A stretch of 64,000 nt of DNA, taken from contig OZ076415.1 in assembly GCA_964187785.1 (NCBI GenBank), positions 66,526,001-66,590,000 on the forward strand, read 5' to 3'. The position numbers and the translations under genes were made by a program. The notes beneath the pieces are model-generated. The model did not search any database and had not been told where the DNA came from. It saw only the letters and a list, made by a program, of their open reading frames with translations. Origin of the DNA: Amphiscolops sp. MND2022 (lineage: Eukaryota). Below, piece by piece: positions 29,725-61,465 of this stretch (its first letter is position 1; each line of letters starts with the position of its first letter).

Positions 29725-29907
29725 TTTGTCTGAGTCCCTTTGAGTTTGATATTATCTTCGGAATTAAATAACGTGGTTGATCGAGTCACGTCATCCATCG
29801 GTGAAGATGTTGAGGCCTGGTAGATCGCATTTTGTATTGCCACAGATAGAATTCTTTGTATTTTATCTTACTTTGTCGTGTGTATTATCGTGGAAGTTGT
29901 ATCTTCA

Positions 29908-32900
29908 ATGGAGTCAGCTGAGGAAGATGTATCCACTGTCGTGTTGGCTGCTGAAGGTGTTTTGGTCGATTTTGCAAACTTGAGTCATTCATCTGGAGAG
30001 CAGGGCTTACAGGCGTCAGCTGAGGAGATGCTAGCAGGAGAGCCGGAATCTGTGTGTTGTCAGTTCGCTCAACGTCTAAATGCTGCCAACATTGAAATGC
30101 TACCTCCTTGCTGGAAATTGCGTTGTCTCACGAATTTCATAAGTGATTTCAATTTTATAATTTTCATGTGTTGTATCAGCAACGTGTGTGACTCTTCAAG
30201 GCAATTGATTGTAACATGGTTACTGCGCTGGTTTGAAGGCAGGCCGATGTCGTTAAATTAAGGACTTCCCGGGAACTATTGCCTTGGGTGGACGGTTTGC
30301 CAGTTTGCTCACTACTTGCGTATCGTTATTGAGACTAGTATATTTTCTGTTACAGAAGAGCTGAATTTGGTCGACATTGTTGGCGTATTGCGCTGTATGC
30401 TCCACCCGGATGAGCCGTCATCAGATTCGTCCGCTGTCGGGACGTTTGAAGCCAGTTTGAGGGCTTACCTCGTCTCTCGCAAAGGTAAGTAATCAGTTAT
30501 CGTAAATTACTTGGTGGTTACTGTAATAATCTATTAATTCCACAAGTGACGTCGTGGGGGGTTTTGGCTGTTAGGTTCCATTAGAGACTGAGCAGAGCAT
30601 GCTATTTTGATGTAGCCTCGTCATTTGGGTTGATTTGTTTCAGGTGTCCCGGTCAGTGGTTGTCTGTCCCTGAGTGACCTCAGAGCAGCGCTTTGTCAAC
30701 TGGAGAAAGAATTGGGTCAGATCGTTAAGGCTACTGTGGAGTCAACGTTGGGCCGTCTCGGTACTGTCAGGGCTATCGCTGTTGACGACTTTGTTGTGCG
30801 CCTCAAGACGGCACTACGTGATGTAGTTGGTACAGCGGCCATGCAACCCTCTACTGTCATGGAAGATGTGCCTGTGCTGCCAACGTCCAGCAGTCTTGTT
30901 CCACTAGTGCCTGGGTCAAGTCAGACAGATGTCTCTGTCTCTAGTCGTCAGGGATCCGTGATGCCTTCGCTCTTTGGTGACGTCCAGTCTGGTGATCCTT
31001 CCGGTTTACGAACTGCGTCTGCTGCTAAGCCTGGTAAGAACTCATAAGATCATGTGAGGGGTTTTAGTTTACAAGCTTTCTAAGACTATGCTCATGTACT
31101 AAGATCTTTATGTAACTACTGAAAAAATTTTTTTTTGAGTTTTGCGGTTGTGTTTTAGTTCGAGCACGGAAAGTTAAAACACTGAAACCCTCGTATTTCG
31201 TATCGGGAGTGGTCGGGACGTTTGTGGGGTTCCCGCGGCACAAACGTGTTGTGGACGGGTTCGCTAGATGCTTGCTGTGTCGTGTGGATCTCAGCATTGC
31301 CGGGCGTGGTCCCTTCTCGTTGTGGGACCATTGGAAGGGGGTCGAACATACGAGACTCGAGCAGAAGTACCGTATCATGACCCAGAAGCCATTGCTGGAC
31401 AAATCGTGTCGTGCTGTCAGTGCAGAAGAAGATCGCCGTAAACGTCGTGAATGCATGTCCGAGCCGCCTGTGTACCTGGAGTCAGAGTTAAGTTTGACCG
31501 TGGACGAAAGAATCGCCATAGAGGAAGCCGAGGAAGCTGAGGGGCAACGGCCTCAGTTAGCTGCTGGAAGTGTCAACTATCTGTGGTTGAGCAACTTTAT
31601 CAACAGTTTCGTGAACGTGGTTTCCTTCGGTGCTGTTTTGCGGCTAGTGGACTCAGGGCGGGACTTTATGGCTGCTGAATTGCGTTTTGAGTGCAGGACT
31701 TTGACTTACCCACAATGTCAGGTATGTATTTTGTTCAGTGCGGTATTTTTTGTTTTCAATATTTTGTTAGTTATTTGCGTTTTCATCTCAAGCTACCATG
31801 TAGTAGTTGTTACTACGTACTTTTCGGTTTTTGTGTTTTCTCTTTTTATTTTGTTTTTGTTTTTGCCTCATGATGTTTGCGTGTGGTTGTACTGGGTACA
31901 TTTTTGTTTTGCAGAGCTTGGTGTTGTATGGACTATACCCGTACGTTGTGGAACAGCTGGACTCGCTCATGGAGACCAGTACATGTATCGGAGTCAGTGT
32001 GTTTCGCTGTGGTTCTCGATGGCGCTGTGAAAGTCCCATCGTCAGTGAGCATAGTGTTGCGTCAGTTGTCATCGCTCTAGTCGTTGACAGTGCAGGATGG
32101 GAGAAGCAACTGCTCAGGAATGTCGTTCCCATTCTCGCATGTTTGAAAGGCAGGGATCAGTTGAGCACTGTGGTTGTGGAAGGGGACCCCTTGGTTGGCA
32201 AGGCATTGGCCGCTACAATTGCTCCGAAAACTCCCTTCGTGACTGGAATGGTTACTCAGACGACTGTGTTCGAAGAAATTCGCAGGCAGTTTCTAATCGA
32301 GTTCTCTGGTCTGGATTCGCTGAGTATACTGGAGTATTTTCGCATTCGCCTGATGTCCGTTGTCCAAGAACACTTCTTAGATCGATTGCCGCATTTACGA
32401 GAAGTAAGTATTTACTGTGTATAGGGAAGGCTTTTGTTTGTAACTCACTCCTTCTTATGTGATGGTCTTTTCTTTGAGATTGTGCTCTATACTCTTGTCC
32501 TATGCTTTTGTTATGTGACAGGAGATGTGCTAGTAATATGTCTTGTTTTGCAGTATGTACGCTATGGAGGAAGTGACGTCGCTCAGTTGGCAAAGGTGTG
32601 CACTGAAATAGTTGAATACTGGAACGATCTAGCCTTTTATTTCGGGACGCATCGACCGAATGTGACTTCGGAGTTGCTGGTGACTACGCCTTTGGAGAAG
32701 CAGGTCTTTGACGATGCGATGGTTCGGCCGCGGTTTGCTGTACTTTGCGTGGTGTTGGATCTGAGTTAGTATAGACTATTCATATCCTACTGAGTCGTAT
32801 TTGTTTTTTTTTTGTTTTTCTTTGAAATTGGGGCTGATAGCTTCGTAACTAGAACTGGTGTTTGACGTTTTGGTTAGTTGGATTGTTCTTTTATAACGGT

Positions 32901-34271
32901 GATTGATGTCGTTTTGTTTTAGTGGTGAAGTACTGTACTCGACTTTTGGCAAGGACGGGACCGTCAATTAGTCGTGGAGCGTGAACTTGCGCATTTTATT
33001 CGTGGGTTGATGCAGTTTGTTTACCCGTCGTCTGTTATTCCGGCTGCCTACGACGTGACCGCTTTGTTAAAGCCAGTGGATCTCGAATGTGCTGATGTGG
33101 ATGCGGATCTTTACTGTTTACATTTTCGGGCAGTACTTTCACTTTGATATCAGTACCCAACTGCCTTATTTCTATAAATCAGTTCAAAAGTTGTTGGTTG
33201 GGCTGTGTACCGGATTGACGCGTATGTGGCAACGAGTGTGGGCTGAGTACTTTAGTCTTACTCCTTTTGACCCTGATCTGTTACACAGTGGTCCCGACGA
33301 CCGGCGCACCGACGCGCTTGTAGAAACCTGTGCTGTTCTGACCGATCGCGGCTTACTTGACTTGGATTACGGAGGAGCAGTGCATCAGGAGTATATGGAA
33401 GTAACGCAATACTTCAAGAGGCGCTGGTCGGCTTTGCAAGAAGGGGTGCCTGTTGTGGATGATGTAATTGCTATGTGGATGTCGTACCCGCATTGGGATC
33501 GAAAACAGCATTTACGGCGCGTAGTGGATGTAGTATTCGGAATCGTTGTGGTGAGTCCTTACGTTGCCGATTTCGTGGACGATTCTCAGACAGCTCTGGA
33601 TTCAGATACTTTGGTATCTAGTTTGCACTTCGTGAGGAGCTGGTTCCGTTATTCATTTGCGGGACGGACGCGACGGAATCTCCAAGGGTTGCTGCGCGTT
33701 ACCGACTCAAGTGACATGTTGGAATCGCGTTTATCAGATGTGGTCCGAGCAAAACCTTGGGACCAGTTGCTCAAAGTTGGTTTGGATACAACATTGGCTA
33801 GCTGTGAATCTGTTTTGACTAACGATCAGAACTCAACTGTTGTTCCTGCGGTGGATGATTATCGTTAAAACGTGTTAGCACAGCTCAGTGCGTTAGATAG
33901 AGAACCTGCCAGTCCTTCTAGTGGTCCCTCAAGCTCGAAAGGAAAACGTTCTGCTGAGACATCCAAAGCTAAAATCGCCCGTAAGCAGTCGGCGGTGAAG
34001 CTACAGACTCCTGTGAGTGCACCTGTGCGTCGTTCTGGTGCTAAGAAAGATTCGTCGAGGGGTCAAGGCTCTTCGATTCGAATTGGTGTCGGACGAAGGA
34101 CCGGAGGAAAACCGCGTGGTTCAAAAACTTTGATCCTGTCTACCTTGTTCTAGCGGTTCTGTGTCGCACGACGTAAAGCAGTCTGTTGGTAAAGGAAAGA
34201 GTGTGACTGATAAGAAAAAGGCTCGACGAGCTGTTCTCGAGTCTTCAGATGGTGTTTCGGATGAGTATTAA
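29908..34271 (+). pseudogene. Spliced antisense gene inside element B (~1,120 aa; C2H2/BED-like zinc finger, K/S/R-rich C-terminus); last exon damaged
   Basis: Exons 29908-30142 (tentative), 30356-30484, 30644-31033, 31159-31721, 31915-32403, 32554-32764, 32923-34271 with GT-AG introns of 125-213 nt. Frame is preserved across the first five junctions. Motif RCLLCRVDLSIAGRGPFSLWDHWKGVEH. Frameshifts near 32930, 33130 and 34140; TAA at 33866-33868. Confidence 0.8.
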
Positions 34272-40766: not shown

Positions 40767-42034
40767 TACAAGTTTTTTGAATTCGTGTCGAACTCATCGT
40801 TGTGATCCGTGTCGTAGCAGTCGTTAGCTTCTTCTGGTTGTGTAGTCTGGCTTGTCGCTTGCGTAGCTTGGTAGGTTCGCTGATAGTTGTTTTGCGATCG
40901 TTTGAATTCACGACGGAATTCGCGATTTTCATTGGTGGACTGCTTGTCATATGGTACATTTCGGTAAGCCGATGCACCTGGTACCCTGTCTCTGCAGTCC
41001 CGTGCGGAATGTCCGATCTTGCCACAAATTTGGCCAACTAGTTTGGAGTTGTATCGTGGTTTTTCGGTTTCTTGTTGTTGGGCATTGTTGTTTCCAGGTT
41101 GGGGACGTTGTTGTGACTTCTTCGTTATTCCGTTGGCTTCGTCCCTGAGGCGTTTGCGGCATTCGATCCACTTGTGGCCCAGTATGTTGCAGTATCTGCA
41201 ATTTCCTTCGAATCTTCGTTTGACTTCTCTTGTGGCGTTCTTCTCGGTGTTGTTGTGGTTGGGGGCCGGCTGAACGTTGTTTTGTTTCGGTTGGTAGTGG
41301 TAGACCTTGTTAAGTTGCTGCATGTCTGAGGTGCCAGGGAGCAATTGTGCATATTGGCAACGGCGTTGTACAAACGTCTTGATATCTTCCACCTTGGCAT
41401 CGTGTTTGCTTGCCATGGCAAGTTCATTTTGGATCTGGATTGGCAGTTTTGCAAACAAAAATGTCTCGGCAATGTCGTTGGCTTTGTCTCCATACGCTTG
41501 TTTAGCGAGTTTCTTGTATTTGGTGAGGAAATCGGCAAACGACTCCTTCGTGGGGTCGTACCTCATCTGGTCGAATTTATACTTCGATACCTCTCTGAGG
41601 TCCTCCTTTGCATACTCTTTGTTGAATGCTTGCAGGACGTCGTGGAGTGTCGTTTCGGTTGTGATTTTTAGGGTTTGCCAGAATTCTATGGCCTTGTCTC
41701 GGAGCAAGCTCTGAAAGTAGTTCAGTTTCTGATCTTCTGTCAGTTTATTCATGTGTGGGCGGAGGTGGTTTTTCAGTAGGTGTTCGAATTCAATATATTT
41801 GTCTCGGTTTCCGCGGAAGAGAGGGACTTGAGTTTGGAGGATTTTGGGCTGTATCACTCCATCAGTCATTGTTGTCCCTAGATTGTGGATTTCGGTCATG
41901 ACGTCGTCCATTTGAGGGTCATTGGTGGATGGTGCACGGTTTCTGGTGTGATTGGTTGCAGGGGTTGGAAGGGTCCTGCGTAGCTGTTGGAGGTTTGGAG
42001 TCGGGATTGAGTTCGTGGAGACTCCTGTCACCAT
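40766..42034 (-). CDS. gag: Element B gag (main part; N-terminal ~107 aa at 61468-61787, separated by element C)
   Basis: VPLFRGNRDKY capsid-like region; CRYCNILGHKWIEC and a second damaged knuckle; A AAA AAC slippery site just before the stop. Confidence 0.92.
   Translation of the reverse strand: MVTGVSTNSIPTPNLQQLRRTLPTPATNHTRNRAPSTNDPQMDDVMTEIHNLGTTMTDGVIQPKILQTQVPLFRGNRDKYIEFEHLLKNHLRPHMNKLTEDQKLNYFQSLLRDKAIEFWQTLKITTETTLHDVLQAFNKEYAKEDLREVSKYKFDQMRYDPTKESFADFLTKYKKLAKQAYGDKANDIAETFLFAKLPIQIQNELAMASKHDAKVEDIKTFVQRRCQYAQLLPGTSDMQQLNKVYHYQPKQNNVQPAPNHNNTEKNATREVKRRFEGNCRYCNILGHKWIECRKRLRDEANGITKKSQQRPQPGNNNAQQQETEKPRYNSKLVGQICGKIGHSARDCRDRVPGASAYRNVPYDKQSTNENREFRREFKRSQNNYQRTYQATQATSQTTQPEEANDCYDTDHNDEFDTNSKNL
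42021..42033 (-). promoter_or_regulatory. Primer-binding site of element B (TGGTGACAGGAGT, tRNA-Leu-like)
   Basis: Starts with TGG immediately after the reconstructed LTR end CA; tRNA identity tentative. Confidence 0.75.
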
Positions 42035-42035
42035 G

Positions 42036-44225
42036 TGTAAAGGTTCGTGTGGGTTTAGGAAAATTAGTTTTCTGCGATTCTTAGTCAGTTGAGCTTAGGA
42101 GTTAGCTTGCGACTATGCCTTCCTAAACCTTTACAAAAGTTGTCTCTAGGTCTTCCGAGTTCGCAGGAAGGACTTTGTTTCGAGAGAAGAGTTTAATTTT
42201 ATAAAAAGAATTTGAATTAGGTTGAGTATTATATTCAACAATGTTCGTTTTTACACAATACGCAAGAATATAATACAAACAGAATAATATAAGCATCCAA
42301 ATTGACACAAGTATCCAATCAATAATATCTGGATTGTTTAACATTCACCAAAATAAATACGTTAATGTATTAATATAGCAATATTCAGGTAAGTTGTTAG
42401 AGTACTGTAAAAGCTGGAACTTTGGAGTCCTATAACGTCCAACAATTTGTTAGGACGAAGAGTATTGGATTTTTTGATCTGTTCAGACCTTTTTCATGTC
42501 TTAGTATTCTCAACAAGAATGTGAGATTAGTTAAGTCTGTTGACAAAGGTATGACAGGTTTGTCAAAGGCTCTAGCTTATAAGAAGCTGAAGAGTTTAAA
42601 TTGTGAAGTTTTAACTTATATAACCAGCAATAGCTAGGTCGAAGACAAGATTGTATAACGTCAAGACTTTGAAGAAGTCTTGTAACTCTGGGTAAAGCAA
42701 AATCTTATTAACCAGCGTTTAGCTAGGTTTTGTGTTTGGACAGGCTTGCCAATGGCTGCTTGAACATAAGGTTCAGTGCAGTGTTTTAAGAGTTTAGCCT
42801 ATTGCAATGGACTAGCAGGTTTGCTAAGTCGAAAAAGAGACAAGGTTGTCTAACGTCAAGACTTTGAAGAAGTCTTGTAAGTCTAAGTGAGGTAAGGGTC
42901 TTATTAACCAGCGTTTAGCTAGGTTTTGTGTTTGGACAGGCTTGCCAATGGCTGCTTGAACATAAGGTTCAGTGCAGTGTTTTAAGAGTTTAACTTATGT
43001 TGTGACTAGCAGTGGCTAAGTCAAAAGGAGACAAGATTGTCTAACGTCAAGTCTTTGAAGAAGTCTTGCGAGTCTAATTTAAGTAAAGGTCTTATTCAAC
43101 CGCGTATAGCTAAGTTGTTTTTTTGTACAGAATTGTCAGGGAACTCGAACTTAAGGTCCGACTAAAGTAAATTGAAAGATTATATGCATTTTAGGTTTTA
43201 ATTTTAATTTAAGTTAAGATAAAAATTAACTTTAACTAGCATTTGCTAAGTCTTGACGCGATAGCGTACTTTAGAGAAAAAATAAGTCTCAATCAAGAAT
43301 CTGGTTTATTTGGAGCGTTTAGCTCAAAATATAAATCCCTATGATTGCATAGGAGAACCTTGTTGGTTAACTTTTTGTTCAGTCGAATGACTGTAAATTT
43401 GTTGTCACGAAGACAAGAATAAAGCAAAAAGGAAGAAATTTTGATTGTGAATTTTGTTGTTAATTTCTTAGTTAAAGAAAATAACTTACCTGAAAAGCGA
43501 AGTGAGTGGAGGTTTGGAGATTTGTTTGTTTTTTGAGAGGAGGAGAGTGACGGATTTGATTTTGTTTGAGAGGTGAAAGACTATGAGAAGCGTATGATCG
43601 TCTTTAGAAATGTTGGCCCTTTTATACAAATCAAAAGGCACGTGCAACCAATCGCATTGATCGGTGCATTTTATTGGATACGAATAAATAACGTCACATT
43701 CTCGGTCCTTGTTCGGGATTAACCTCGGGACCAGGCATGGCCGAGTACAAGTCGGCAAGAATTGCATCAGCTAGTCATTTAACTCGGCTAGCCGAGTTGG
43801 CTGATGCAATTTTTGTTTATGTCAGGGGAAATAGACTCTTAAGTGGGGACTTTTGGTCTCGCTTGAATAATCTTTTGTTCTCAAATTGAGAAGCTCCGGC
43901 CGCACAAGTGGCGCCTATTGTTCTCTTCTCAGAGATATTTGCTCGCACAAGTGGCGTCGCATATTGTCTTTTTCAAAAGAATAAAAGAGAATTATTTGCA
44001 CAAGTGGCAAGCGTCTTTTTTGTAAAGGGGAATTTGTTCTTTCAAGTGACGCGCAGTTGTGAATTTGTTCACTTCTAAAATTCTTTCAAGCGTGCCTTGA
44101 AAATTGAAAGAATGCGAAAAATGAGTTACGGAAAATGAATAATTTTATTCTAGCTCCGATGAAAGATTCTTAGATAAATGTTTTAGGAATATTAAACTGA
44201 AGAAAAAGATGTGTTGAACACAACA
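42036..44225 (-). repeat. 3' LTR of element C (2190 bp, with ~2.5 internal ~193-bp tandem units at ~42640-43130)
   Basis: Direct repeat of 59269-61463, roughly 25-30 differences by eye (~99%). Confidence 0.97.
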
Positions 44226-44248
44226 ACTCACCCGGGGTTTTATAATGA

Positions 44249-45001
44249 TTAAGTTGAAAGGGGGGGATACAGGGTGTTTATGACTTTTACTTCGAAGAAT
44301 ATGGAATCGTTTTTCAGCCAAGGGTTTTCGGAATTCATTAGTTCATCAAGAGGGATGAAACACAAGATGGTGACGGCTGTGTTGCTAGATGTAGGTATGA
44401 GTTTCTTGAAGCACTCACTGTTGTTGTTGTTTGTCACAATCAGCTGCTTGTAAGGCTTGGATATGTTTCCCTGGCCGAGCAGGTGGATCTCAATGACGCC
44501 TTGAAAAGGCCAAATGAGGATCTCGTCATAGGGCCCGGGACACATAGCCAAGCACACTGACATGTATTTTCCTTTAGCAGTGTGGATCCCAAAGGGGTAG
44601 GCTCGAAGATGGAAAGTGTAGCCAAAGGGTTGCGAGAAGAAAATAGGGCTGCAAAGATCTTTTAGGCTGTTAGGATCACAATAGGGTGCTCTTACATGAG
44701 ACAAACTCTTTTCGTATTTATCCGCATTTTTTAGAATATCGGTAAACTGATCGAGTCTCCAAATGACTCTGTATAAGTTCCAATCCCGGGGAATTGACTT
44801 TTTTTCTATACGTAGAATACGCATTTCCAGTGCATCAAGTCTTTTGTTTACCTCGTGTGTGCGGTCCGAATCTTTTGATTCATCGGTGTAAGGGGTGATG
44901 TTTACTTTTTGTCGCAGTAGAAGTAACTCGTTAATTAGGGAGTCTGTCAGGGATCGTTCGTCTTCTAGTTGTTCAATGATGGTGGATAAGCTTGAATTCA
45001 T
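44249..45001 (-). CDS. TRAF-like protein (coiled coil + MATH/TRAF-C domain, no RING or zinc fingers), 250 aa
   Basis: VIWRLDQF, SPIFFSQPFGYTFHLRAYPFG, YMSVCLAMCPGPYDEILIWPFQG, CFIPLDEL, WLKNDSIFFEVKV match the TRAF-C strand motifs; intact, intronless. Confidence 0.92.
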   Translation of the reverse strand: MNSSLSTIIEQLEDERSLTDSLINELLLLRQKVNITPYTDESKDSDRTHEVNKRLDALEMRILRIEKKSIPRDWNLYRVIWRLDQFTDILKNADKYEKSLSHVRAPYCDPNSLKDLCSPIFFSQPFGYTFHLRAYPFGIHTAKGKYMSVCLAMCPGPYDEILIWPFQGVIEIHLLGQGNISKPYKQLIVTNNNNSECFKKLIPTSSNTAVTILCFIPLDELMNSENPWLKNDSIFFEVKVINTLYPPLST

Positions 45002-47711
45002 CTTGAGTTATAGTTCTGAAAGAGAATACAAAATCACTTTTAAAAAATGCTGAAGTGCCTCTAAGGGGCACTACTATTCGTTGATAGCCTAGAATGGGAT
45101 TTTCTAGTGTAAATTCTTGGCGGTTTGGATCCCAGAAGACAATATGCCACTGGTTACATTCTCGTTTCAAAAGATAATTTAAATCGAGTTGAAATCGGGG
45201 ATTTCTGGTGAAGGAATATCTGTTGGCAGCCTCTTCAATCTTTCGTTGTCGGCGTAGTGATTCTTGAACACCAAAAGTAGTCTTTTGCTTTTTATGAGAT
45301 TGTTTGATGGGTGATGGATGAGGTCGCTTGGACGGTAAGGGAGTTGTTTTCAGGCTGTTTGGTGGAGGAGGCGGTGCTGTTTTGACAGTGCCTTCAGCTA
45401 TTGTCTCAGTTGGGAGGAAGTCAAAATCTGATGGAGAAAGCAGAGGAAGATCGATCAAGTCGGCGTTGTCGGGTTTTGGTTCACTGGTTAGCGACTCTAT
45501 TTCTTCTGCAATTGATTTTTCGTTTTGCATGTTCTGGGTACTAAACACAAAAACATGAAAGTACAGTTTTACTGGTGAGACCGTATGGATGGTTGATGTG
45601 GGGGGTCTTGTTATGGCAGGATAAATATGCTCAAGAGTCTCGTGCTCATTGTAGTTTTTGTCGGGTGGAGTACTTGAGGTCATTGGGTCATGTTGGGGAA
45701 TCTGATTTAGCGTTGATATCATTGATACTGTAAACAAATTGTAGGTTGCTGAGAGGAGTATTTTACCGATACCCCAAGAAGCTCCTGTTACTCGGTGTAG
45801 TTCAAATGAGCGAAATGTTATGACGATTACATTAACCAAAAACTTGATAAGAAGAAATCCTCCAAACCATTGTCCCAGTTTGCTAAACCAGTATTCAATG
45901 ATACCAAAGGTGCTAATGAACTGCTCTTTGAAGTATCCTGGCGATATCATGTTGTCCACGTAGAAGTCTGTACGTGGTGCATAATAACCAAACTCGTCGG
46001 GGCCTTTGTTGGAGGCTGAAGGTATGATGAGTTCCCGTGAAAATTTTTGTAAAGCTTTTCTGGATGCTGCGCTAATCAAAATATTGTCCCAAAAATCACT
46101 GAGCTGTCCTTTTGTATACATTCCAGCATCCTGAGATTCATCGAAAGTATCCTTGGTAAAGGGAGAAATTTCTTTTGGGCCAAAGATGGCAGGTCTGTCT
46201 CGATGTGTGGGTTCTGGGTTTAACGAAAACCAGGAGTCCTTGTCTTGCATGTCCAGTTGATAAAGATTTTTGATTCTGTCCGTGCAGTTTTGAGTATTTG
46301 CATTAGGATAAGTTTGTCGGGTGATGGGATCTACGAATTGGATTTGTCCTTTGTAAAAGATGGGTGTTTTGTCATAACAATTACTAATAACATGAAGGGG
46401 TGATGATATTAAAGGACAGGAGTAGAGCCAAGCAAGACTGCCATCAGTTTCAAGGAACATAGATCTGTTTCCAGTTAGCATATATCCTGCAAGGCGTGGA
46501 TTTTCCAAAGAGAGCATCAATATAGTGAGTACTTGGGTCCTTTCTTGCTCACATTGGTTTTTCAACATTTGAATCTCAGACGATTGAAGCGCTCGAGTGC
46601 TTTCGAAAAATAGGTAGTCCAATTTTGTACCAACTTGCATTTCGTAGTCCATATGGAGCCAAGTATTTACATACTTGTCTTTAACTGTGGCGTCTCTGTT
46701 GTATATGTAAAGTCCAGGTTTCCCAGAGTTGTCTGTGGAGTATTGGAGGGTATAGAATCCTCTTGTAATTCCCATTTTTCTTCCAGAGGCCATGTCAAAT
46801 CCACCAGTATGTATTACAATGTACATGGACTCGTAATTGGTTGGGTAAACATCATTCGGTTTATTACAGAATTTCTGGGGGTAGTTTTTCACTTCGAACA
46901 AGAATTTGGAAGTGGAGGCGTTAGTACTCACCATGTGATATCGATGTTCATTTTTAATCATGTTCACTTGTTCTTCCTTCAAAACCGACAATACGCAATT
47001 ATCTGGGTGATCCCATATATAAGCATAAGGATCTAAGGATGTGCTTTGGCAACCCAAATCATCGAGTTTACATGGAAGGGGATTCCCATTTACATTATGT
47101 ACTGTTCCGTCTCTCAGTTTAACTGGTAGAGTCACCTCTTGGATGTGGCTTTCAAAAGTGTCTTTGGTCATCCAAGACCTTCCATTGCAATGGTTCCTAT
47201 TTTCCTCGCTTTTCTTCCCATTAGTATAGGATTGAACAAGTTTTGTCGCTTTTTTGAACTGGACCATGTGGTCGAGTATTTGTATTTTTCCTTCTTCCCG
47301 TGCCCTTCTGCATTGTTCTTTGCTCAGGTCGATATCGCTTGTGATTGTGTTTTGTTCGGCGTCAATACTTGCATGGTCATGATATCCATAGTGCCACTTG
47401 AATCTACTGTGCTTTAGACGGCACATAGTGGCGTTGAGTTCTGTTCGGAAGTGCTTTGTGTAGACAGTGATTATAGCTGGGTTGATTTCAATGTTTTCTG
47501 GGGAAACGTGGCAGGGTCTCACTTGATTTAGTGCATACAATTTGTTTTCAGTCATCTCTCCACAATCATAATGTGACACACTGAGTCTCTGTGCAATGTC
47601 GTCCAGATTGGGGTTCGGAAGGCCATTGATGAGGGCGTAGCACGTAATGAGCATTACAAAGAACTTACTGCACATTTTGGATCTAATGGGGGGAATCTTA
47701 GGCATTGCCAA
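44973..47711 (-). CDS. env: Envelope glycoprotein, chuvirus-G/herpes-gB-like (class III), read through into a ~185-aa downstream segment
   Basis: Signal peptide after M47675; HYDC..LNQVRPC; QCEQER..ENPRLAGYMLTG..DGSLAWLYSC..CYDKTPI..VDPITR..C Cys pattern; TM segment WFGGFLLIKFLVNVIVITF. Confidence 0.85.
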   Translation of the reverse strand: MAMPKIPPIRSKMCSKFFVMLITCYALINGLPNPNLDDIAQRLSVSHYDCGEMTENKLYALNQVRPCHVSPENIEINPAIITVYTKHFRTELNATMCRLKHSRFKWHYGYHDHASIDAEQNTITSDIDLSKEQCRRAREEGKIQILDHMVQFKKATKLVQSYTNGKKSEENRNHCNGRSWMTKDTFESHIQEVTLPVKLRDGTVHNVNGNPLPCKLDDLGCQSTSLDPYAYIWDHPDNCVLSVLKEEQVNMIKNEHRYHMVSTNASTSKFLFEVKNYPQKFCNKPNDVYPTNYESMYIVIHTGGFDMASGRKMGITRGFYTLQYSTDNSGKPGLYIYNRDATVKDKYVNTWLHMDYEMQVGTKLDYLFFESTRALQSSEIQMLKNQCEQERTQVLTILMLSLENPRLAGYMLTGNRSMFLETDGSLAWLYSCPLISSPLHVISNCYDKTPIFYKGQIQFVDPITRQTYPNANTQNCTDRIKNLYQLDMQDKDSWFSLNPEPTHRDRPAIFGPKEISPFTKDTFDESQDAGMYTKGQLSDFWDNILISAASRKALQKFSRELIIPSASNKGPDEFGYYAPRTDFYVDNMISPGYFKEQFISTFGIIEYWFSKLGQWFGGFLLIKFLVNVIVITFRSFELHRVTGASWGIGKILLSATYNLFTVSMISTLNQIPQHDPMTSSTPPDKNYNEHETLEHIYPAITRPPTSTIHTVSPVKLYFHVFVFSTQNMQNEKSIAEEIESLTSEPKPDNADLIDLPLLSPSDFDFLPTETIAEGTVKTAPPPPPNSLKTTPLPSKRPHPSPIKQSHKKQKTTFGVQESLRRQRKIEEAANRYSFTRNPRFQLDLNYLLKRECNQWHIVFWDPNRQEFTLENPILGYQRIVVPLRGTSAFFKSDFVFSFRTITQDEFKLIHHH

Positions 47712-47759
47712 AACTTCTTTTTGTGAAGGGCAAAATGTTAAGAGTGGTTTACGAGAGGA

Positions 47760-48100
47760 GAATTAAACGGTAGCTTGCTAACCGAGAGTTGGTGGAGTCG
47801 AATTTGACAATCCAGTTGAAATCAAGGTTGATTTGACTGATGAAGACTGCTTTTCAGAATGACTGAAAGTGGACAAAATTTGTCTATTGTCTTCAACCAA
47901 ACCAAAATTTGGATATAAATTTGGTAGTTTGCTAACCAGAAGTCGAAGGAGTCTAACTGACTACCCGATGCGAATCAGAATTGATTCAGACGTGATGATG
48001 TTTTCAAGAACTGAAATGAGAAAAATGTTGTCTAATGACTTCAACTAAAGCGAAAGTGAATAAACGTTTGGTAGCTTGCTAACCAAAGGAGGGTGTAGTC
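47760..48100. repeat. Three imperfect ~150-bp direct repeats upstream of env
   Basis: Core ggtagyttgctaacc at ~47769, ~47924 and ~48069. Confidence 0.6.
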
Positions 48101-48310
48101 AAAGTGACCACTTCTGTAGTTTTGAGATTGGTGCACGAGTCTATAAATTGAGTTTCAGTATCTGGCTCGATTGATAGCCGTTTTATAAGCATTGAAAGTA
48201 CACTCTGTTATCAGAAGTGAAGTTATGGGCTTTGGATTTGAAAATGGGATAGTGAGGTGGGATTATAAGAATTTATTCAACACAAAATACAAGGTTCTAG
48301 TTTATGAAAT

Positions 48311-48978
48311 TTACAAATCATAAAATTTAATAAGATCCGTGTACAACTGGTTATATTTAGGAGAGGTGACGCATTCGATATCCATAACACTGGTTAATTC
48401 TCCCAGCACATCTAAATCAAATTTGGTGATGTGTCTTTCGGGTTTGTGTTCATACGAAATGAGGGAAGCGGCTAGTGATGCATATAGGAAAGTGTTCTTG
48501 TAGATTTGTCTCTGGTACTTTTTGTCGGGCAAGTCGTAACGCTCAAAATGGATGCAAATTTTGAATCCGTAGGTCCAAGTCCACCGAACATAGGTAATCA
48601 AAAACTTTTTGTTGTTTTCACTAACGAAAATTGTCCAGGGGCAATTGAAACTGCGTTCTTCGCATTTCTTCTCCCAAAGGGTGTCCCAGTAGATAGTAGG
48701 AAAATGATAGCTTTGTGTAATTCTCGATTTTGCTCTGTTGCGCGAGTCTTTTTTGAGAATAGACTGTGGGTTCATTAGAGTCAAACAAATCTGTAGGTAT
48801 GTCTCCCACAAATGTCATAAGATGTAGAAAATAGTTCCAGTAGACTGATTGTCGATCTACAAAAACAATGTCCCTTTTTGAAGTGATGTGGTGTTTTAGG
48901 TAGATATAAATTCTATCTTGGTCCAGCTCAGTTTTATAGATCCTGTAGAATGCGTTTTCAATTTTGATGTAAGTCATA
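48311..48978 (-). pseudogene. Element C accessory ORF (~220 aa, aromatic-rich, one frameshift), unknown
   Basis: Overlapping ORFs 48621-49013 and 48311-48811 join near 48710. Confidence 0.55.
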
Positions 48979-48996
48979 CGATGAACTGAAATAATC

Positions 48997-49482
48997 AAAA
49001 GTTTTTTACCCACGGCAGAGATTGATAACTGAGATCGTTACCGTGCTGAAAAGTTTTTTACCCACGGCAGAGATTGATACTGTGATCGTTACCGTGCTGA
49101 AAAGTTTTTTTACCCACGGCAGAGATTGATACTGTGATCGTTACCGTGCTGAAAAGTTTTTTACCCACGGCAGAGGTTGATACTGTGATCGTTACCGTGC
49201 TGAAAAGTTTTTTACCCACGGCAGAGATTGATACTGTGATCGTTACCGTGCTGAAAAGTTTTTTACCCACGGCAGAGATTGATACTGTGATCGTTACCGT
49301 GCTCGACTTTTTGAAAGGTTTTTTACCCACGGCAGAGATTGATACTGTGATCGTTACCGTGCTCGAATTTGAAAAGTTATTTACCCACGGCAGAGATCGA
49401 TAACTAAGATCGTTACCGTGCTTGATTTTTTGAAAGGTTATTTACCCACGGCAGAGATTGATAACTAAGATCGTTACCGTGC
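48997..49482. repeat. Tandem array, 9 copies of a 51-60 bp hairpin-forming unit
   Basis: Unit aaaagttttttacccacggcagagattgatactgtgatcgttaccgtgctg; CACGG/CCGTG and GAT/ATC inverted pairs. Confidence 0.95.
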
Positions 49483-49584
49483 TAAGCTGAAATGAATGAT
49501 TATATATGAGCTATTAGTTTAAGTTAAGATGACAGCGAAGAGAAGGGAAAAGGATTGGGTAAGAAGAAGACTTTTATGTACAAT

Positions 49585-50106
49585 TTAAAAGTCGTCCATT
49601 TCTTGCCAAAGCATCACGGTTTCTAATATGTCTATATACATATCTTTATAGTTCGAGCTCCGGCAGGTAGCATCCATTTGGTCTGTTATGGCGCTCAAGG
49701 CATCAGTATCCTGTTTAGACAGTTGCGGTTCTGGTTTCCTTTTGTAAGTGACTAGAGCTGCTGTCAGAGACATGTAGAGAAATGATCCCGGTTTTAACCA
49801 TTTATGGTACGCTTGCTTTGACCTGTAGTTGTGGAATCGAATTTCCACATCTGCTGCTGGATGCCAGCTCCAGTTAAACTCTTGTACAATCATGGAAGTC
49901 TCTTCGACTTCGGGCATCACATTCCATGTGCAATTGAAATTGATTTTATTGATAACGATGATTGGAATGTCATGAAAGACGGGCTTCATCTCTGGTTGAA
50001 TTTGGCTGAAAGTTGACTGAAAAGAAAGACAATGTTCGAAAATGCTCCTTGGCTTATTTTGTAAAATTTGAACAAGTTTTACGGTTGCAAGAGCTTGACT
50101 TTGCAA
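49585..50106 (-). CDS. Element C accessory ORF, 173 aa, unknown (start uncertain)
   Basis: Open frame with protein-like composition between pol and env. Confidence 0.5.
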   Translation of the reverse strand: MQSQALATVKLVQILQNKPRSIFEHCLSFQSTFSQIQPEMKPVFHDIPIIVINKINFNCTWNVMPEVEETSMIVQEFNWSWHPAADVEIRFHNYRSKQAYHKWLKPGSFLYMSLTAALVTYKRKPEPQLSKQDTDALSAITDQMDATCRSSNYKDMYIDILETVMLWQEMDDF

Positions 50107-50872
50107 AAGACAAAATTTTATACTTTTGTGTTTTTGTTCTTTTCACAAGGTTCTCCTTTAGCAGGGCTTTGTCTTATTTCTTTTGTTCTCCTACTACTTT
50201 TGTTTTCTTTTGTAGTCTTTGTAATGTGATTTTTGTGTTCTTTTGTTTTCTGCATGCTTTTGTTATTACATGCAGTGACTTCTTTTATTAATTTCTTCTA
50301 ATTGTTGACTCCTCTTTTCCGTTTTCTTTGGTTTGCATCATTGGCTTTCATCTGTTCTTTTTATTAAAAACGCGCTTTTGTTGTTGAAGAACTGTGGGTG
50401 CCATGTGTGTTTTTGAAGTTTGCTTTGTAGTGAATGCGCTTTTGTCATGGTTTAGTTCTTTTGGTTGCCATGTGGTTTCAAGTGGTTTGAAAAATTGTTT
50501 GTTCACAATGTGCTTTTGTAATGGTTCAGTTCTTTGGACGCCATGTGTGTTTTTGAAGTGGTAGCTTAAGTTTGACTTGTGTTGAGTGCGCTCTCGGATG
50601 TTAGTCTGATCTCTTCAAATTCACAAGTAAGTTCGTTTTCGGTTTTCGTTTTTCTTGAATTTTTGTTATCGTGTATATGACACGCTCGACCGCCGAAAAA
50701 GGAATAGAAAAGTTGTAAGCATATAGTGGTAAAAATTGGGAGAAAAATGAAAAACGGTGTTGAGCAGCAAAGTGTGAGAGGAGGAAATTTTTAAATGGTA
50801 TAAGGGGGGGTGGTGAAAATGAAATTTGAGATTGCAAGTTAGTTGTTGTTATTTAGACTTTTTCTTTGCACG

Positions 50873-51466
50873 ATGAACCGCTTGCCCTTTTCTACCGCAA
50901 ATGACGCGTATTTGGCGCCAGATCTTTTTGCTGACATGCGAGCGTTGGTAACTGACCTGGAGCTTCCGATGATGGCGGGAACAACACCGGAAAGTGAAGT
51001 TCTGCGGCGCCCAGAACCACTTCGGAGAGCAGTGAGGTTGGCGTTAGGAGAACACGTAAGTTATTGAGTAGGGTGGCTTCTAAGCACTATAGGGGAGGTT
51101 TTTTTTGTATTGTTTTTGTCACGGATATAAGAAGGGAACAAAGTTGTCGTTCTGAAAGTTGATTGTACGTGTTTCGTAATTGTGATTTCCAATCGTGATA
51201 GTTTGTTTTAGTGGAGAAAGAAGCTATCGCACGGAGCCAAAGATGTGTGGACTTTTAAACTTAAGGCGATAGTGCAAGGTTGGGAGAAGACTTCTCCACA
51301 AGACCGGGCCAATATAGCTCGACGGTTGGACAGGAGCCAATTCTTCGAGGTCCTCCAAGAGCTAGCCTTAGCAGGAGGGTACATGGTGTGTTTGTGCGCT
51401 GGACACCCTAAGCCACCTCCTAATGGGGCAACCGTTGTCCCCTTTGAAAGGGAAGACTTATTATAA
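50873..51466 (+). CDS. Two-exon antisense gene inside element C (145 aa, unknown)
   Basis: Exon 50873-51055 (ATG, 61 codons); donor GTAAGT; 156-nt intron ending tttgttttag; exon 51212-51466 in phase 0, open to the stop. Confidence 0.7.
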
Positions 51467-51658
51467 ACTTGTATAAATTGTAAATATTTTGTTTTTGTTA
51501 TTTTAATATTTTAATTTTATTTTGTAATACTTTTGTTTTAAATTTAAGTTTTTAAGTTGTAGGGTGAAAAGTAAGAGAACGGTTTTTGACGGTTAAAAAT
51601 TCGAAAAGTTTAGCTGGAGGAGAAGGATTAGCTAAAACTTTGAGCAATCGCCTCTGTG

Positions 51659-51855
51659 GAGGCTTGTTGATTAAAACATCAACAGTCACAGTGCTATCTA
51701 TTCCAGGCAGTTCGACCATTTAAGGCGAACCGCCATAGCACATTTTTTCTTTGTGGTTTTTGTCTCTTGGGAAGACTTGTTGAAGAAAACCGTCAACAGT
51801 CACAGTGGTATCTATTCCAGGCAGTTCAACCATTTAAGGTGAACCGCCATACCAC
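51659..51855 (-). ncRNA. Duplicated cis-acting RNA stem-loop (2 copies, 114-bp period) downstream of pol
   Basis: Stems GTGSTAT/ATASCAC and GGCGGTTCR/YGAACTGCC with two compensatory substitutions between the copies. Confidence 0.6.
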
Positions 51856-52255
51856 GAATTTTTCTCTAATACATGGAGAAGTGATCCAATTAAAGATTTT
51901 TGGTAAAAATCTCGTGCTTGAGTGAGGGGTTCCAAAAAGGTATACCAGTGAAGTGTAGGCTATTGCCAATTTTCTCGTAAAAAAATTGTGGTTGCTGTAT
52001 CCAATGGGTCACTAGGCAGCCACTTTGTTTGTGACTACGTAAGAAAAAAATTGAAGTTTTTTTTTGAAAAATGTTTCAGGAGTGTGTTCGGAGGCTTCCT
52101 GGTGAGTCTCATGACACGGTGAAGTGTGTGTAGTTCCGGATTGTCTAAGTATATAATTGTGAAGAAGAAAAGGTAAATCGGGATTTTGGCGGAACGGAAG
52201 TGTTAGAGATGTGAAAAGATTTTATTATTATTATTATTATTTTTTAATTGAAATT

Positions 52256-55200
52256 TTAATCTTTATAACCTTTTCTCTCAATGTCTCGGAGGGAACTACC
52301 AGGGGTGCTTCGTTCGTATTTAGGATTTTTGGGTTTTTCGGAAAACCGTGTAGTTACTTTTTTCTTGAAGTTAGATAACTTTCCTGTTTTTGGGGAAATT
52401 TGATCGGGGGGAGACATTGTATGGATAGGAGGTACGGACGGGAGAACCGGTGTTCTTTTAGGTAGGGGAGTATTGGAAGAGAAAGCGAGTGGCAATACTG
52501 CCAAGGGAAGGCGTGGTGTTTGCATCGGTGGAAGTGGATTTGTTCCACAGCTTTGATAGGAACGTTCCCTCGGAACGGTGTTGTTAGACGTAGATGGTAT
52601 TGGGGTGTGAAATTGTGGGGTTTTCGGAGAGAGGAATCCAGAATCGGTACTGGGGGAAAATTCAGAACTTTTTGTAATGTTGTTGTTCGGCCCAGAAAGG
52701 GGGGTTATGATGAGTGGCATAAAATCTAGTTTGTGCTCAGATTGTCCTGAATTGTGTTTGTCAATTTGACTCTGGATCAAGTGCTTGTAAAAGTTATCAT
52801 CTTGTTCTATGGGAGCGTAATTTGTTAGCAATGGGGGCAAGGTCTCCTCTTTGGGGAAATATTCTAGTAAGTGGTTTCGATGAGTGGTTTTTACGTTCTC
52901 GGGGTTTTCATCTTCTTTTATCTCGTATGTGGTGTTGGTTATTTGTCTTGTCACCGTGAAAGGTCCTACTCGTAATTGTTTCAATTTCTGTGATTTGAAT
53001 AGGTCGGGTTTATGATTCTCTAGGAGAACCTTTTGACCGACTTCGAGCGGTCGTCCCAGTTTGAAACGGTTCCGATACTCATGAGCCTTTGATGTGATTT
53101 CTCTACATCTTTTGTAGGTGGATGAGTAGATGGACTTGAATTCGTTTTCTCTTGTAAGTAGCTCGGAAGATAACTGTGGTTTAAGGAGTCGATCAAGGGA
53201 CTTGTTTCGGAGGTTATTTTCACTGTGGGTGTGAGGTTGTAAATCCGCACAAAACTCCGATTTGCATAGTTTGTTTTTGTCGCGAATAAGTCCGAGTTTC
53301 AGCGTCATGGGTATTTGTGGTTTAACGCCAAAAACAATTTCGTAAGGAGTCAAACCCCGTTGTGTAGTTTACGCTCGTATTATGGGCAAAGGCAAATTTA
53401 GATGCAAGTGTTGACCAATTGTTTCCTGACTCGTTGGTGAAGTTCCTCCAGTATCTCATGAGATGTTTGTTCTGGACTTCCACTTTGCCGTTCGTCCAAG
53501 GCGAGTATGCAGTGCGCGGTGCCAACGTTATCCCAAATTCTTTTGTCCAATTTCAAAATCACGGTTGATGAAAGCTGAGCCATTATCGTGGACGATTTTT
53601 TGAGGGATGCCGTAGGATGTAATCCATTTTTCTAGTGCATTGATTGTAGTCTGAGCTCCTGTATCTCGAACAGGATAGACTCCGAGAAATCTTGAAAATG
53701 CATCTACTACAACTAGACAATGTGTGTTCAAGTTACTGCTTGGTCTAATAGGTCCTTTGTGGTCGATATGAATTGTTTTGAAGGGGGTTGTTTCGAGTTC
53801 GCCCCACTGCTTAAGAGGCGCTTCTTGTAAGTCGTGTCGCTTAGACTTGTTAGTCTGGCATTGTAAACAATCCTCTATTAGAGATACTATCCATTTATAT
53901 CGTCCAGGCCAAAAAAAATTCTGTCTGATGTTTTCGAATGTTTTGAATATGCCTGGATGGCCGCTGTGAGTGTGAGCATGAGCTAGGTTGAAGAGGGGTA
54001 GGAATAAGGATAAGGGGACACAGATTTTCATCTCGTATTTGTCTGTTCCATGAACGGGTTCATTATAGCAGAGTAGATTGGTTTCTTTATCGAGAAAAAG
54101 TTGGTTAAAATTATTGAAATACGATAGTAAGGCCCTCGATTGTTGTATTTCGGGTGTTTTGGTGGTTGGCTTGTTTTGGTTTCTAACCCAGGATCGTACT
54201 ACTTGTAATACGGGGTCCTTAATTTGTTCTGCGACTAGAGTAGGGATATCCAGATCAGCGACCTTAGAATAATCACTCAGTTTTTGTAGGAGATCTTTAG
54301 TGTCAACGTGTGGGAACTGCTCCACGTCTGAACTTTTATTTAATAGTGGTCTTCCAACCTTTTGTAGAATGTTCTTTTCCTTTGCCGTTGATTTATCACG
54401 GTAGAACTCGTGATCTCCGCTGGAAAGGTGGAGTTCGGCGACATCTTCTTCGTCATCACTAGAGTCTGTTTCAATTTCGTCTATTCTACTATATTCGGGT
54501 TCGCACTGCATTTTGTATGGGGGAAGACAGAGGTTTTTGTATTGGTTGATTGACTTCCCCAATTTAAAACAATCGGCGATGTCTTGTCGAGTCGTCATTA
54601 CTGTTTGTTGGTTCTCGTAGTGTTCTACTTCATGTTCCTCTCCATCGTACTTGAGATGGAGTAGTCTTTGATCTTTGCCCGTTTGACAAAGGATAGGAAA
54701 AAAGTCATTGGTTCCACACTGACCGTCGTCATTGTGCTCGATTGTATAATGTATTTTCGATCCGAATTCGTCAAAGAAACTGATATCTCGCGGTATTTCT
54801 TTGTGGAGTTTCTGCAAATTTTTCCTTTCCTCCAATGTGACGTTCCGACTGAGTATATCTGGAAACGCGAGATTAGATCCTTTAGTCCAGATGATTTTGA
54901 GGTTTTGGAACTTGGTAATTATTACCTGGTATTTGAAAAAGCGGTGTGAGAGTTGTCCTTTCCGCCCCCAAAGGTATAGGATGGGTTTGTGATCGCAATA
55001 GAGGTATATTGGGAATGGAGATCCAATAATGTAGTGTTCGTATGTTTGAAGTGCTGATACTATACCACACAATTCACGGTGAAGGGTGGACATTTTTTGT
55101 TCAGCCTTGTCAAATACGCGCGAATTGAAAGAAACTATCCTTTTGCCTTCTGGAAACTGTTGCACTAAAATACAACCGGTACCAACATTCGAAGAATCGA

Positions 55201-56536
55201 CATGTATGTGGAAGGGGTACTCAGTTGAAGGGACAGCAAGAATAGTGTCTTCACATATACGGCTTTTTATATCAGTGAAGAGGTCTTCGTGTTCTTTTGT
55301 CCATTTGAAAGGTGTTGTAGATTTGATCAAGTCGTAGAAGGGTTGACTGTCCACATGTAAGTTCTTTATATAGCAACTATAAAACCCAAGACAGCCAAGT
55401 ACTTTCATCACATCCCTTTTACTTTCGGGTGATTTTAGGTTTTTGAGATCTTGTACTCGTTTTGCTAAGGGCTGTATTCCTTGTTCAGAAATAACATGAC
55501 CCAGGAATTTGACTTTTCTAATGAAGAAGTTTGTCTTCTCAGGTGCAGCTTTAAGTCCGGCTTTTCTCAGGAGTTGATGGTACTCGTGAATTATTGTGAA
55601 CATTTCTTGTTTTGTTTGAGCCTGCATTAGGCTGTCATCAAGGTAGGTGATAGCTTGTTTTCGTTTAATAAGGGGCTCAAAGTGTATAGCCATTAAACGA
55701 CTAAAAAAGTTTGGAAGTCCACAGAGTCCGTAAAAACCACGTATATACGTATACTGTTTTCCGCCGGTGATGAAACTAGTGAGCTTTTGGGTCTCGTCGC
55801 TCAATGGTACTTGGTGATATGCGCAAGATAAATCGCTGACTGTGAAGTACTTTCCATTGATTCGAGTCATGATCATCTGTATGGGTTCCAATGGCCACGA
55901 GTAATTTGTTAAATCTGTTATAGAATTCAAGTAGCGGGCATCGATTACTAGTTTTACGTAGTCTGCTTTGGGCATTAGAATGATCGGATTGACAAAAAGG
56001 GAACCTAATTCGTCATCGTCTCCCATTTCTCTAATGATATCAGCTTCTTGGAGTTGTCCAAGTAGCTTCTCAAGTTTGTCTTTCAAGTGAAGGGGTACTT
56101 TGCTCGGTCGTTGTTTTTTGAGTTCCGAATTTGCTTTGAGGGTTACATGAAATTTTTGACGTACTTTTCCCACGTCGAATTTGTGTTGTGAATACACGTC
56201 TGCTGCGTCAATAAGCATATCTATTAGGACAACCAATTCTTCATCTTGGAGGTCAGTATATCGGAAATCGAATTTTTTCACATATTCCTTGGTTTCTTCA
56301 CGCTGATATTGGAGGTAGTTTTCTATCAAAGCGTCGTTATCTTCTTTTGTTCTAAGTTCAACAAATTGTTCTGTACAGGGTGGCTGACAAGATTTAGCGT
56401 CCTTAGCAAAATCTGTTTCAAGTTCTTCAGTGCCATTAGCAAATTTTTCCATATAATAGTCAATATCTCCCTCTTCTACTTCTTCTTTTCGTATGGAAGC
56501 ATTAACAAATTGAAGGTTTGCTTCTTTTTGTGACAC
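52256..56536 (-). CDS. pol: Element C pol: RT, RNase H, integrase (frameshifts at ~53530 and ~53350), long Pro/Ser tail
   Basis: VKLVIDARYLN, TYLDD, HVDSSNVG..FPDILSR, HAHTHSGH..CLQC, IDHKG..HDNG..GKVEVQN, VGPFTV. Confidence 0.96.
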
Positions 56537-57720: not shown

Positions 57721-57831
57721 AAATGCTATTTCTAACCCACTATCTTTTTTGGAGTCTCCGGTGGGAAAAAAAGAAGAGATTTAGGTGAAATCGTGATTTG
57801 AGGTTACTTTCTTAGTCAGGTCGCGGAGACT

Positions 57832-59226: not shown

Positions 59227-59248
59227 TCTTCTCTTTTCCTTGTATGTG

Positions 59249-59265
59249 CCTCACTGGTCGCACCA
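59249..59265 (-). promoter_or_regulatory. Primer-binding site of element C (TGGTGCGACCAGTGAGG)
   Basis: TGG start 3 nt after the 5' LTR; cognate tRNA not identified. Confidence 0.75.
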
Positions 59266-59268
59266 GTT

Positions 59269-61463: not shown

Positions 61464-61465
61464 CA

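Follow-up and report, generated by a model that had tools for sequence, protein, structure and literature searches.

The 64,000-nt stretch of genomic DNA that was analysed (the window) contains a 19.4-kb Gypsy element with an env gene, which spans positions 42036-61463 on the minus strand (Table 1). The hallmarks of Ty3/Gypsy elements (Metaviridae) are all present: paired LTRs of about 2.2 kb each with TG...CA ends, a target-site duplication, and a primer-binding-site-like site. The pol order is also that of Ty3/Gypsy (Metaviridae), running from protease (recognised by motif only) through RT and RNase H to integrase. An ORF for a viral fusion glycoprotein lies downstream of pol, which makes the element errantivirus-like. 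The genes follow one another in the order gag, protease-like ORF, pol, three small ORFs, env, ORF-X, and TRAF. The accessory genes therefore number about five (the three small ORFs, ORF-X, and TRAF). No tRNA was found in the window, and Rfam had no match in the element. The copy in the window has suffered damage: its pol is interrupted within integrase, and a single 910-codon frame joins env to ORF-X and runs past the TRAF start.

Table 1. Features of the env-bearing Gypsy element and of its last gene, in positions of the window (unless a locus is named)
Feature	Position	Strand	Remarks
TRAF accessory ORF, 250 aa, coiled coil + TRAF-C/MATH, without RING or zinc finger	44249-45001	-	
N-terminal helices, aa 3-67, coiled-coil-like	44801-44995	-	heptad a/d positions 62-73% hydrophobic
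TRAF-C/MATH beta-sandwich, aa 76-242	44276-44776	-	
23-nt spacer, TRAF stop to 3' LTR	44226-44248	-	
3' LTR	42036-44225	-	TG...CA ends; 98.7% identical to 5' LTR
ORF-X	45039-45530	-	about 163 aa elsewhere; coordinates projected from the other copies; conserved C-terminal domain
ORF-X in other loci	L003:972-1463; L068:345-821		
env, class III-type fusion glycoprotein	45567-47705	-	PF24664 Monjiviricetes_fusion E 6.4e-35; 3' end projected from other copies
small accessory ORF, 154 aa	48311-48775	-	conserved in subfamily A2 and family B; dN/dS 0.10
small accessory ORF, 118 aa	48621-48977	-	first 65 aa conserved in A2 and B
array of 51-60-nt repeats among small ORFs	48997-49483	.	
small accessory ORF, 134 aa	49585-49989	-	paralogue of the 154-aa ORF
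integrase C-terminal part	52256-53368	-	pol split within integrase in this copy
pol: RT, RNase H, integrase zinc finger and core	53528-56452	-	Ty3/Gypsy order
protease-like ORF	56656-57720	-	DTGA motif; without significant Pfam match
gag	57832-59109	-	Retrotrans_gag E 1.1e-4, just under cut-off
primer-binding-site-like sequence, begins TGG	59249-59265	-	3 nt past 5' LTR
5' LTR	59269-61463	-	
target-site duplication, 4 bp	42032-42035, repeated 61464-61467	.	

Some minor features of the surroundings can be listed here. Each LTR contains about three repeats of 191-196 nt in its interior (42610-43157 in the 3' LTR). The element is inserted precisely where the LTR of another, outer Gypsy element (approximately 27882-62507) meets its primer-binding-site-like site. 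The gag frame of the outer element appears to start within its own LTR, with the same N-terminus at 27805-28203 and 61383-61787. Past the outer pol, at 29900-33900, there are two ORFs on the opposite strand (217 and 257 aa) with no Pfam match.

The three small ORFs between pol and env (48311-49989), two of which are paralogous, are conserved in two groups of related copies described below, subfamily A2 and family B, and two of the three have a dN/dS of about 0.1. None could be assigned to a known family, and the 154-aa ORF had no usable Atlas match. ORF-X combines a C-terminal domain of about 65 aa, conserved across three element families, with a basic patch and a variable N-terminus that is acidic and rich in proline. 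It matched no Pfam family and its best Atlas value was 0.75. A fold search with a single-sequence model (pLDDT 61) returned a best Z of 3.8 and no viral match under E 0.08, which decides neither novelty nor fold.

The last gene of the element is an uninterrupted ORF of 250 codons, as the first-pass annotation had stated. That annotation took it for a TRAF with a coiled coil and a TRAF-C (MATH) domain and no RING, and Pfam, the AlphaFold model, the heptad pattern, and the Cys/His count all agree with this. The profile search that had been proposed as a check found TRAF-mep_MATH at E 1.2e-20 (aa 116-236) and MATH_2 at E 1.4e-19, and PF21355 scored 74.6 bits against a cut-off of 27.4. The AlphaFold model, based on a 22-row alignment (mean pLDDT 75), consists of helices at residues 3-35 and 43-67, modelled at a moderate pLDDT of 53-69, followed by a beta-sandwich. 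In Foldseek the model matched TRAF1 and TRAF2 domains at E of about 1e-13, and the closest solved relatives are TRAF1/5/2. The RING and the TRAF zinc fingers are absent: Pfam had no match for either, and aa 1-110 contain one Cys and two His. Residue 201 is Leu in this copy and Pro in the other 21 rows of the 22-row alignment.

The ORF had also been credited with all TRAF-C hallmark motifs. This is true of the structural motifs but not of the receptor groove, where only four of the ten TRAF2 positions are identical (positions from PMC6125299, with numbering counted on the TRAF2 alignment). In the TRAF1/2/3/5 class the groove has three hot spots for Px(Q/E)E motifs, the serine triad included. 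Of the serine triad one residue in three is kept, and the triad reads S/E/C. The TRAF ORF is a TRAF-family protein of the RING-less kind, outside the TRAF1/2/3/5 binding class.

Two details of the layout at the 3' end needed correction. The stop codon does lie 23 nt from the 3' LTR, but the gene, described earlier as inside that LTR, adjoins it and is situated just upstream. The 29-nt overlap with the upstream ORF is also real, but it had been read as virus-like packing and it is peculiar to this copy. In 28 of 29 other loci ORF-X is separate and ends 36-37 nt upstream of the TRAF start, with the same layout in the remaining one (L009). The overlap can thus be put down to an accident in this copy.

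When the 1.07-Gb genome was searched in six frames with the TRAF ORF, at least 152 matches were obtained, with 150 of 537 candidates scored. The gene is therefore present in many copies and is not limited to this one. Among the candidates scored, 47 matches span at least 247 residues; 42 of these near-full-length matches have no stop and 5 contain stops. The best 45 rows fall into two subfamilies, A1 (11 rows, 95-100% identity) and A2 (34 rows, 86-88%). More distant matches at 26-31% identity belong to family B, in which the TRAF proteins have 323-330 residues. In 14 of the 15 distant loci fetched, env and ORF-X lie upstream of TRAF in the same order; the 15th is the candidate donor gene described below. 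Two A2 and two B copies also contain gag, protease, pol, and the small ORFs. Their LTR pairs are 97.7-100% identical, so both A2 and B inserted recently. Between A1 and B, identity is about 76% in pol, 58% in env, about 41% in the conserved part of ORF-X, and 28% in TRAF.

A third type is represented by a 1.1-kb metagenome contig with the tail of env, ORF-X, and the start of TRAF in the same order; nothing in this genome matches it at E<=1e-25. Related proteins are found in other assemblies: P0001 (56%), P0008 (41%), and several decayed ones near 30%. The best matches of P0001 and P0008 in this genome reach only 60% and 44%, so both come from elsewhere; presumably they also lie in elements. 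None of the six pattern matches among viral contigs was a relative. P0105 was considered as a further family in this genome and rejected, its best match (37%) being to family B loci only.

In some copies the TRAF frame is split. In all 10 of the split copies examined a single base has been gained or lost near codon 66-68, at a homopolymer run of 7 bases, and two of the ten match different unsplit copies at more than 99% identity. A lineage of frameshifted copies spreading without TRAF was ruled out, since the split copies form no clade and the homopolymer indels are recurrent. The split copies are the result of decay or sequencing error.

A candidate for the gene from which the TRAF ORF was derived is present in the same genome. 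This gene, L045 (G000:C3, approximately 90.87 Mb), is a host TRAF in exons, with no env, pol, or gag of the element nearby. Two GT-AG introns flank its MATH exon. The family B ORF runs through both intron positions and the family A ORF through the second. Family B matches three successive donor exons, with 40% identity over 111 aa of the upstream coiled-coil exon (E 3e-17), 47% over 158 aa, and 52% over 25 aa. Family A matches the MATH exon at 39% and the last exon weakly, and it lacks about 75 further N-terminal residues which family B and the donor have in common. Other assemblies contain orthologue-like proteins 55-94% identical to the donor MATH exon, several of which end at the same exon boundary.

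The phylogeny against host TRAFs, proposed earlier as a check, agrees with this origin. In a tree of 47 rows all element TRAFs grouped with the donor and its orthologues at a support of 100/98, apart from a second host TRAF (L049) and from the canonical TRAFs. In a rooted tree of 24 rows (23 rows were left out for speed) the clade of element TRAFs and donor had a support of 98/97. A single clade for families A and B was not rejected by the AU test (p 0.31), but the free tree does not show that clade. Two TRAF proteins of decayed appearance that come from other assemblies, P0102 and P0105, branch off together within the donor clade and could represent a further element family.

The donor has introns and the host gene is conserved, so the direction of transfer was from host to element. 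That the TRAF ORF represents a capture of a host TRAF, with L045 as the likely donor, is well supported by these sequence comparisons. GC3 is 0.38-0.49 in the element TRAFs and 0.57-0.64 in the donor exons, and the codon composition of TRAF has shifted to the element's own.

The N-terminal part of the donor bears on what was captured. No RING or zinc-finger exon was found in approximately 20 kb upstream of the known donor exons, only a small remnant exon with Cys-x-x-x-x-x-Gly-Cys. The only match to the zf-TRAF profile in the genome is on another contig, at L046. Of the donor-like proteins scanned in Pfam none has a RING or zinc fingers, with the caveat that these proteins may be N-terminally incomplete. 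A BEL/Pao-like element lies upstream of the donor. Three other host TRAF-like loci have no element genes nearby: L049 (G000:C2, approximately 79.08 Mb), L051 (G000:C3, approximately 35.24 Mb), and L046 (G000:C10, approximately 42.09 Mb).

The donor TRAF also lacks the serine triad. Compared with the donor, 7 of 10 groove residues are retained, against about 39% elsewhere in MATH (binomial p about 0.05). This hints weakly at a donor-like groove, several groove residues being probably structural. Between the families the groove has drifted (Arg to Lys, and one donor Gly lost).

Selection was estimated from pairwise codon counts (Nei-Gojobori). Between A1 and A2 the dN/dS of TRAF is 0.04-0.05 in all four pairs (bootstrap 0.02-0.08). 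The dS of about 1.4 is near saturation, which makes the family A ratios rough, but those of family B and those within subfamilies agree with them. In family B dN/dS is 0.10-0.15 in all five pairs, and 0.07-0.09 for MATH alone. Within subfamilies the pN/pS of TRAF is 0.10 (18 A2 copies) and 0.20 (7 A1 copies). For comparison, env has a dN/dS of 0.02 between A1 and A2 (0.02-0.05 overall) and ORF-X has 0.10-0.13 (full range 0.04-0.13).

That TRAF is only a passenger evolving neutrally, or was captured by chance in a single copy, is extremely improbable. Single copies do decay, as the stops and one-base indels described above attest. However, neutral evolution was looked for and not seen: dN/dS values of 0.04-0.15 at high dS in two families refute it, the gene is present in three families, and the split copies form no clade. 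By these ratios TRAF is a standing accessory gene under long-term purifying selection rather than a one-off, in elements that continue to multiply. The first-pass suggestion of a retrocopied host TRAF retained by selection is thus upheld by the intron-bearing donor, the tree placement, the dN/dS values, and the spread over three element families. The TRAF ORF is almost certainly a functional captured accessory gene.

MATH_TRAF cargo in an LTR element is already known from the planarian Burro elements (PMC6431247). Burro/GYPSM1 combines a Gypsy core with a mononegavirus-like env and a MATH_TRAF_C domain, together with BIR and BCL2-like domains (PMC6431247). The likeness to the present element is considerable, since both are Ty3/Gypsy LTR elements with a mononegavirus-type env and a MATH_TRAF_C domain, which in Dugesia tigrina lies on an accessory ORF (PMC6431247). 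In Burro, however, env is placed between gag and pol, the domain belongs either to an upstream ORF or to a polyprotein of about 4,900 aa, and it is accompanied by BIR, BCL2-like, and ankyrin domains (PMC6431247). In the present 19-kb element TRAF is a free coiled-coil + MATH gene that follows env at the 3' end, the ORFs are separate, and env follows pol. None of the 13 window proteins scanned has a BIR, BCL2-like, or ankyrin domain. The element is not a Burro, and the presence of the donor in this genome suggests that its TRAF was captured independently of Burro's.

Other known systems share individual features. Mammalian TRAF1 is RING-less, consists of a coiled coil and TRAF-C, and is the top match in sequence and fold (PDB 5h10, 5e1t; PMC11117997). 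It is not an orthologue: structural-alignment identity is about 21%, the receptor groove is different, and the element ORF comes from a lineage-specific host TRAF. The megalocytivirus ISKNV also encodes a TRAF that was derived from a host (ORF111L; PMC3352826), and iridovirus TRAFs are among the best viral fold matches of the TRAF ORF (E 5e-12 and 9e-12). ORF111L, however, belongs to a large DNA virus, has a RING, binds TRADD, and promotes apoptosis (PMC3352826). The env-carrying Ty3/Gypsy "errantiviruses" have the same LTR-gag-pol-env-LTR plan and a class III-type (HSV-gB-type) fusogen (PMC13524379), but the element described here adds about five accessory ORFs including TRAF. The main text of that env-Gypsy survey contains no occurrence of TRAF, MATH, or "accessory" (PMC13524379).

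Burro apart, the literature covered (most subscription papers, Repbase reports, and supplements were outside its scope) describes no LTR element with a TRAF gene. New, as far as that literature goes, are the position of coiled coil + MATH on a free-standing gene past env, the traced donor, the measured selection, and the spread over three families.

The capture itself, the loss of the introns, and long-term purifying selection on the protein are shown; around them the following course of events is proposed. An ancestral env-bearing Gypsy element would have captured a spliced mRNA copy of a host TRAF from the lineage of the gene at G000:C3. The copy would then have been carried as the last gene of a 3' module of env, ORF-X, and TRAF, and family A would have trimmed it down to the coiled coil and the TRAF-C domain. 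The protein presumably works for the element in cells that express TRAF, acting in trans on the donor's pathway. Having no ligase, it would oligomerise via the coiled coil with a donor-like groove kept, and either occupy the donor's partners or join donor trimers, in the manner of TRAF1 with TRAF2. A signal that depends on TRAF, in stress, cell death, or defence, would thereby be damped, and the output affected would more probably be MAP-kinase (JNK/p38) or death than NF-kB. From sequence features and from analogy with known TRAFs, it is about an even bet that the product interferes with the host TRAF adaptor as a ligase-less competitor of this kind.

A decoy role, which the first-pass annotation had proposed, is plausible, and the RING may have been lost at capture. 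The logic of a decoy assumes a RING-bearing donor, and if the donor was already RING-less the copy would be a mimic and not a truncation. The argument that RING-less TRAFs can act as dominant negatives holds in part, as TRAF1 can regulate negatively through TRAF2 but also has positive roles (PMC11117997). The targets may also have shifted, because the groove drifted and the TRAFs of A and B are far less similar than the env and pol proteins of the same elements.

In a second reading the protein is an extra adaptor that turns on or redirects the TRAF pathway (survival, proliferation, LTR transcription) for the element. The donor may itself be a RING-less adaptor, TRAF1 acts positively together with TRAF2 (PMC11117997), and the viral TRAF ISKNV ORF111L is an active signaller, although a RING-bearing one (PMC3352826). 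The selection data fit such a positive role equally well. However, the loss of about 75 N-terminal residues in family A fits a minimal binding unit, and no catalytic domain is left. A positive mimic is on the whole rather unlikely, though it deserves consideration.

A third reading arises from the position of the gene. TRAF is always downstream of env and ORF-X, and the protein could serve Env trafficking, assembly, or entry by binding the Env tail, ORF-X, or trafficking proteins and not immune partners. Synonymous divergence between A1 and A2 is about twice as high in the env-ORF-X-TRAF block (1.3-1.6) as in gag (0.53) and pol (0.69), as if the block had been exchanged as one unit, and over its first 500 nt the LTR shows 83% identity. 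This contrast hints at module exchange by recombination, plus constraint in the LTR. Host TRAF2 is reported to help vaccinia entry (PMC3993545). Against a scaffold of this kind, a canonical TRAF-binding motif is found in none of four Env tails and in one of five ORF-X proteins, where it is not conserved, although this is a weak test with a non-canonical groove. Binding of the TRAF ORF to such a motif was accordingly rejected as a candidate. Furthermore, the main text of the animal-wide env-Gypsy survey is without TRAF or MATH (PMC13524379), which argues that env is not generally dependent on TRAF. The scaffold is unlikely, though somewhat more likely than the NF-kB version discussed next.

The weakest part of the earlier proposal is NF-kB as the blocked target. 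NF-kB is among the known outputs of TRAFs, and the genome contains many TIR domains (41 TIR_2 matches, of which several lie in long frames without introns, 400-670 aa in length, at L070-L075 and other places). However, the Rel-homology families PF00554 (1 candidate scored) and PF16179 (3 scored) had no match in the genome at E<=1, a search in which a divergent Rel domain could be missed. The similar-sized T-box control gave 20 exon matches. NFAT, which has a Rel-type domain, is found in most animals. The same Rel-homology search did not find NFAT either, so a divergent gene may escape it. The TNFR repeat gave one sub-threshold match only. Some invertebrate groups lack NF-kB altogether, for example acoels, which have kept NFAT-type domains (PMC12849515). 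The host may conceivably belong to such a group. NF-kB is a doubtful target of the TRAF ORF, and a decoy that blocks NF-kB signalling specifically is improbable.

For the ligase-less competitor a kinase or cell-death output is favoured, because planarian TRAFs are listed with the TAK1/MKK/p38 module (PMC7958881). The Burro MATH_TRAF domain, lying beside BIR and BCL2-like domains, points to cell-death control (PMC6431247). The broadest version of the argument is that a retrovirus-like Gypsy element with about five accessory genes has held a TRAF for a long time, across several families and host genomes, as a counter-defence in an animal without NF-kB. It is offered tentatively, the balance being somewhat against it. 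If true, it would together with Burro amount to convergent capture, and would reveal that invertebrates restrain retroelements through a pathway dependent on TRAF but not on NF-kB.

Large DNA viruses typically carry signalling genes taken from their hosts, and such genes are rare in LTR retrotransposons. With the capture traced to a donor, the introns lost, and selection present in two families, the element points at a host pathway relevant to its spread. Being small and testable, the TRAF ORF could be used to probe how invertebrates defend themselves against retroelements, probably by a route other than NF-kB.

The copies also matter for annotation. A search of the genome for MATH gave 440 candidates, of which 150 were scored, and the 8 further MATH loci fetched were 6 element copies and 2 host genes. 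Gene counts would thus overstate the host TRAF family, since most of the MATH loci fetched are element copies. If the counter-defence reading is true, some reported "family expansions" of TRAF in invertebrates would be element cargo. A TRAF expansion has been reported in planarians (PMC6109357), and by analogy part of it may be Burro cargo.
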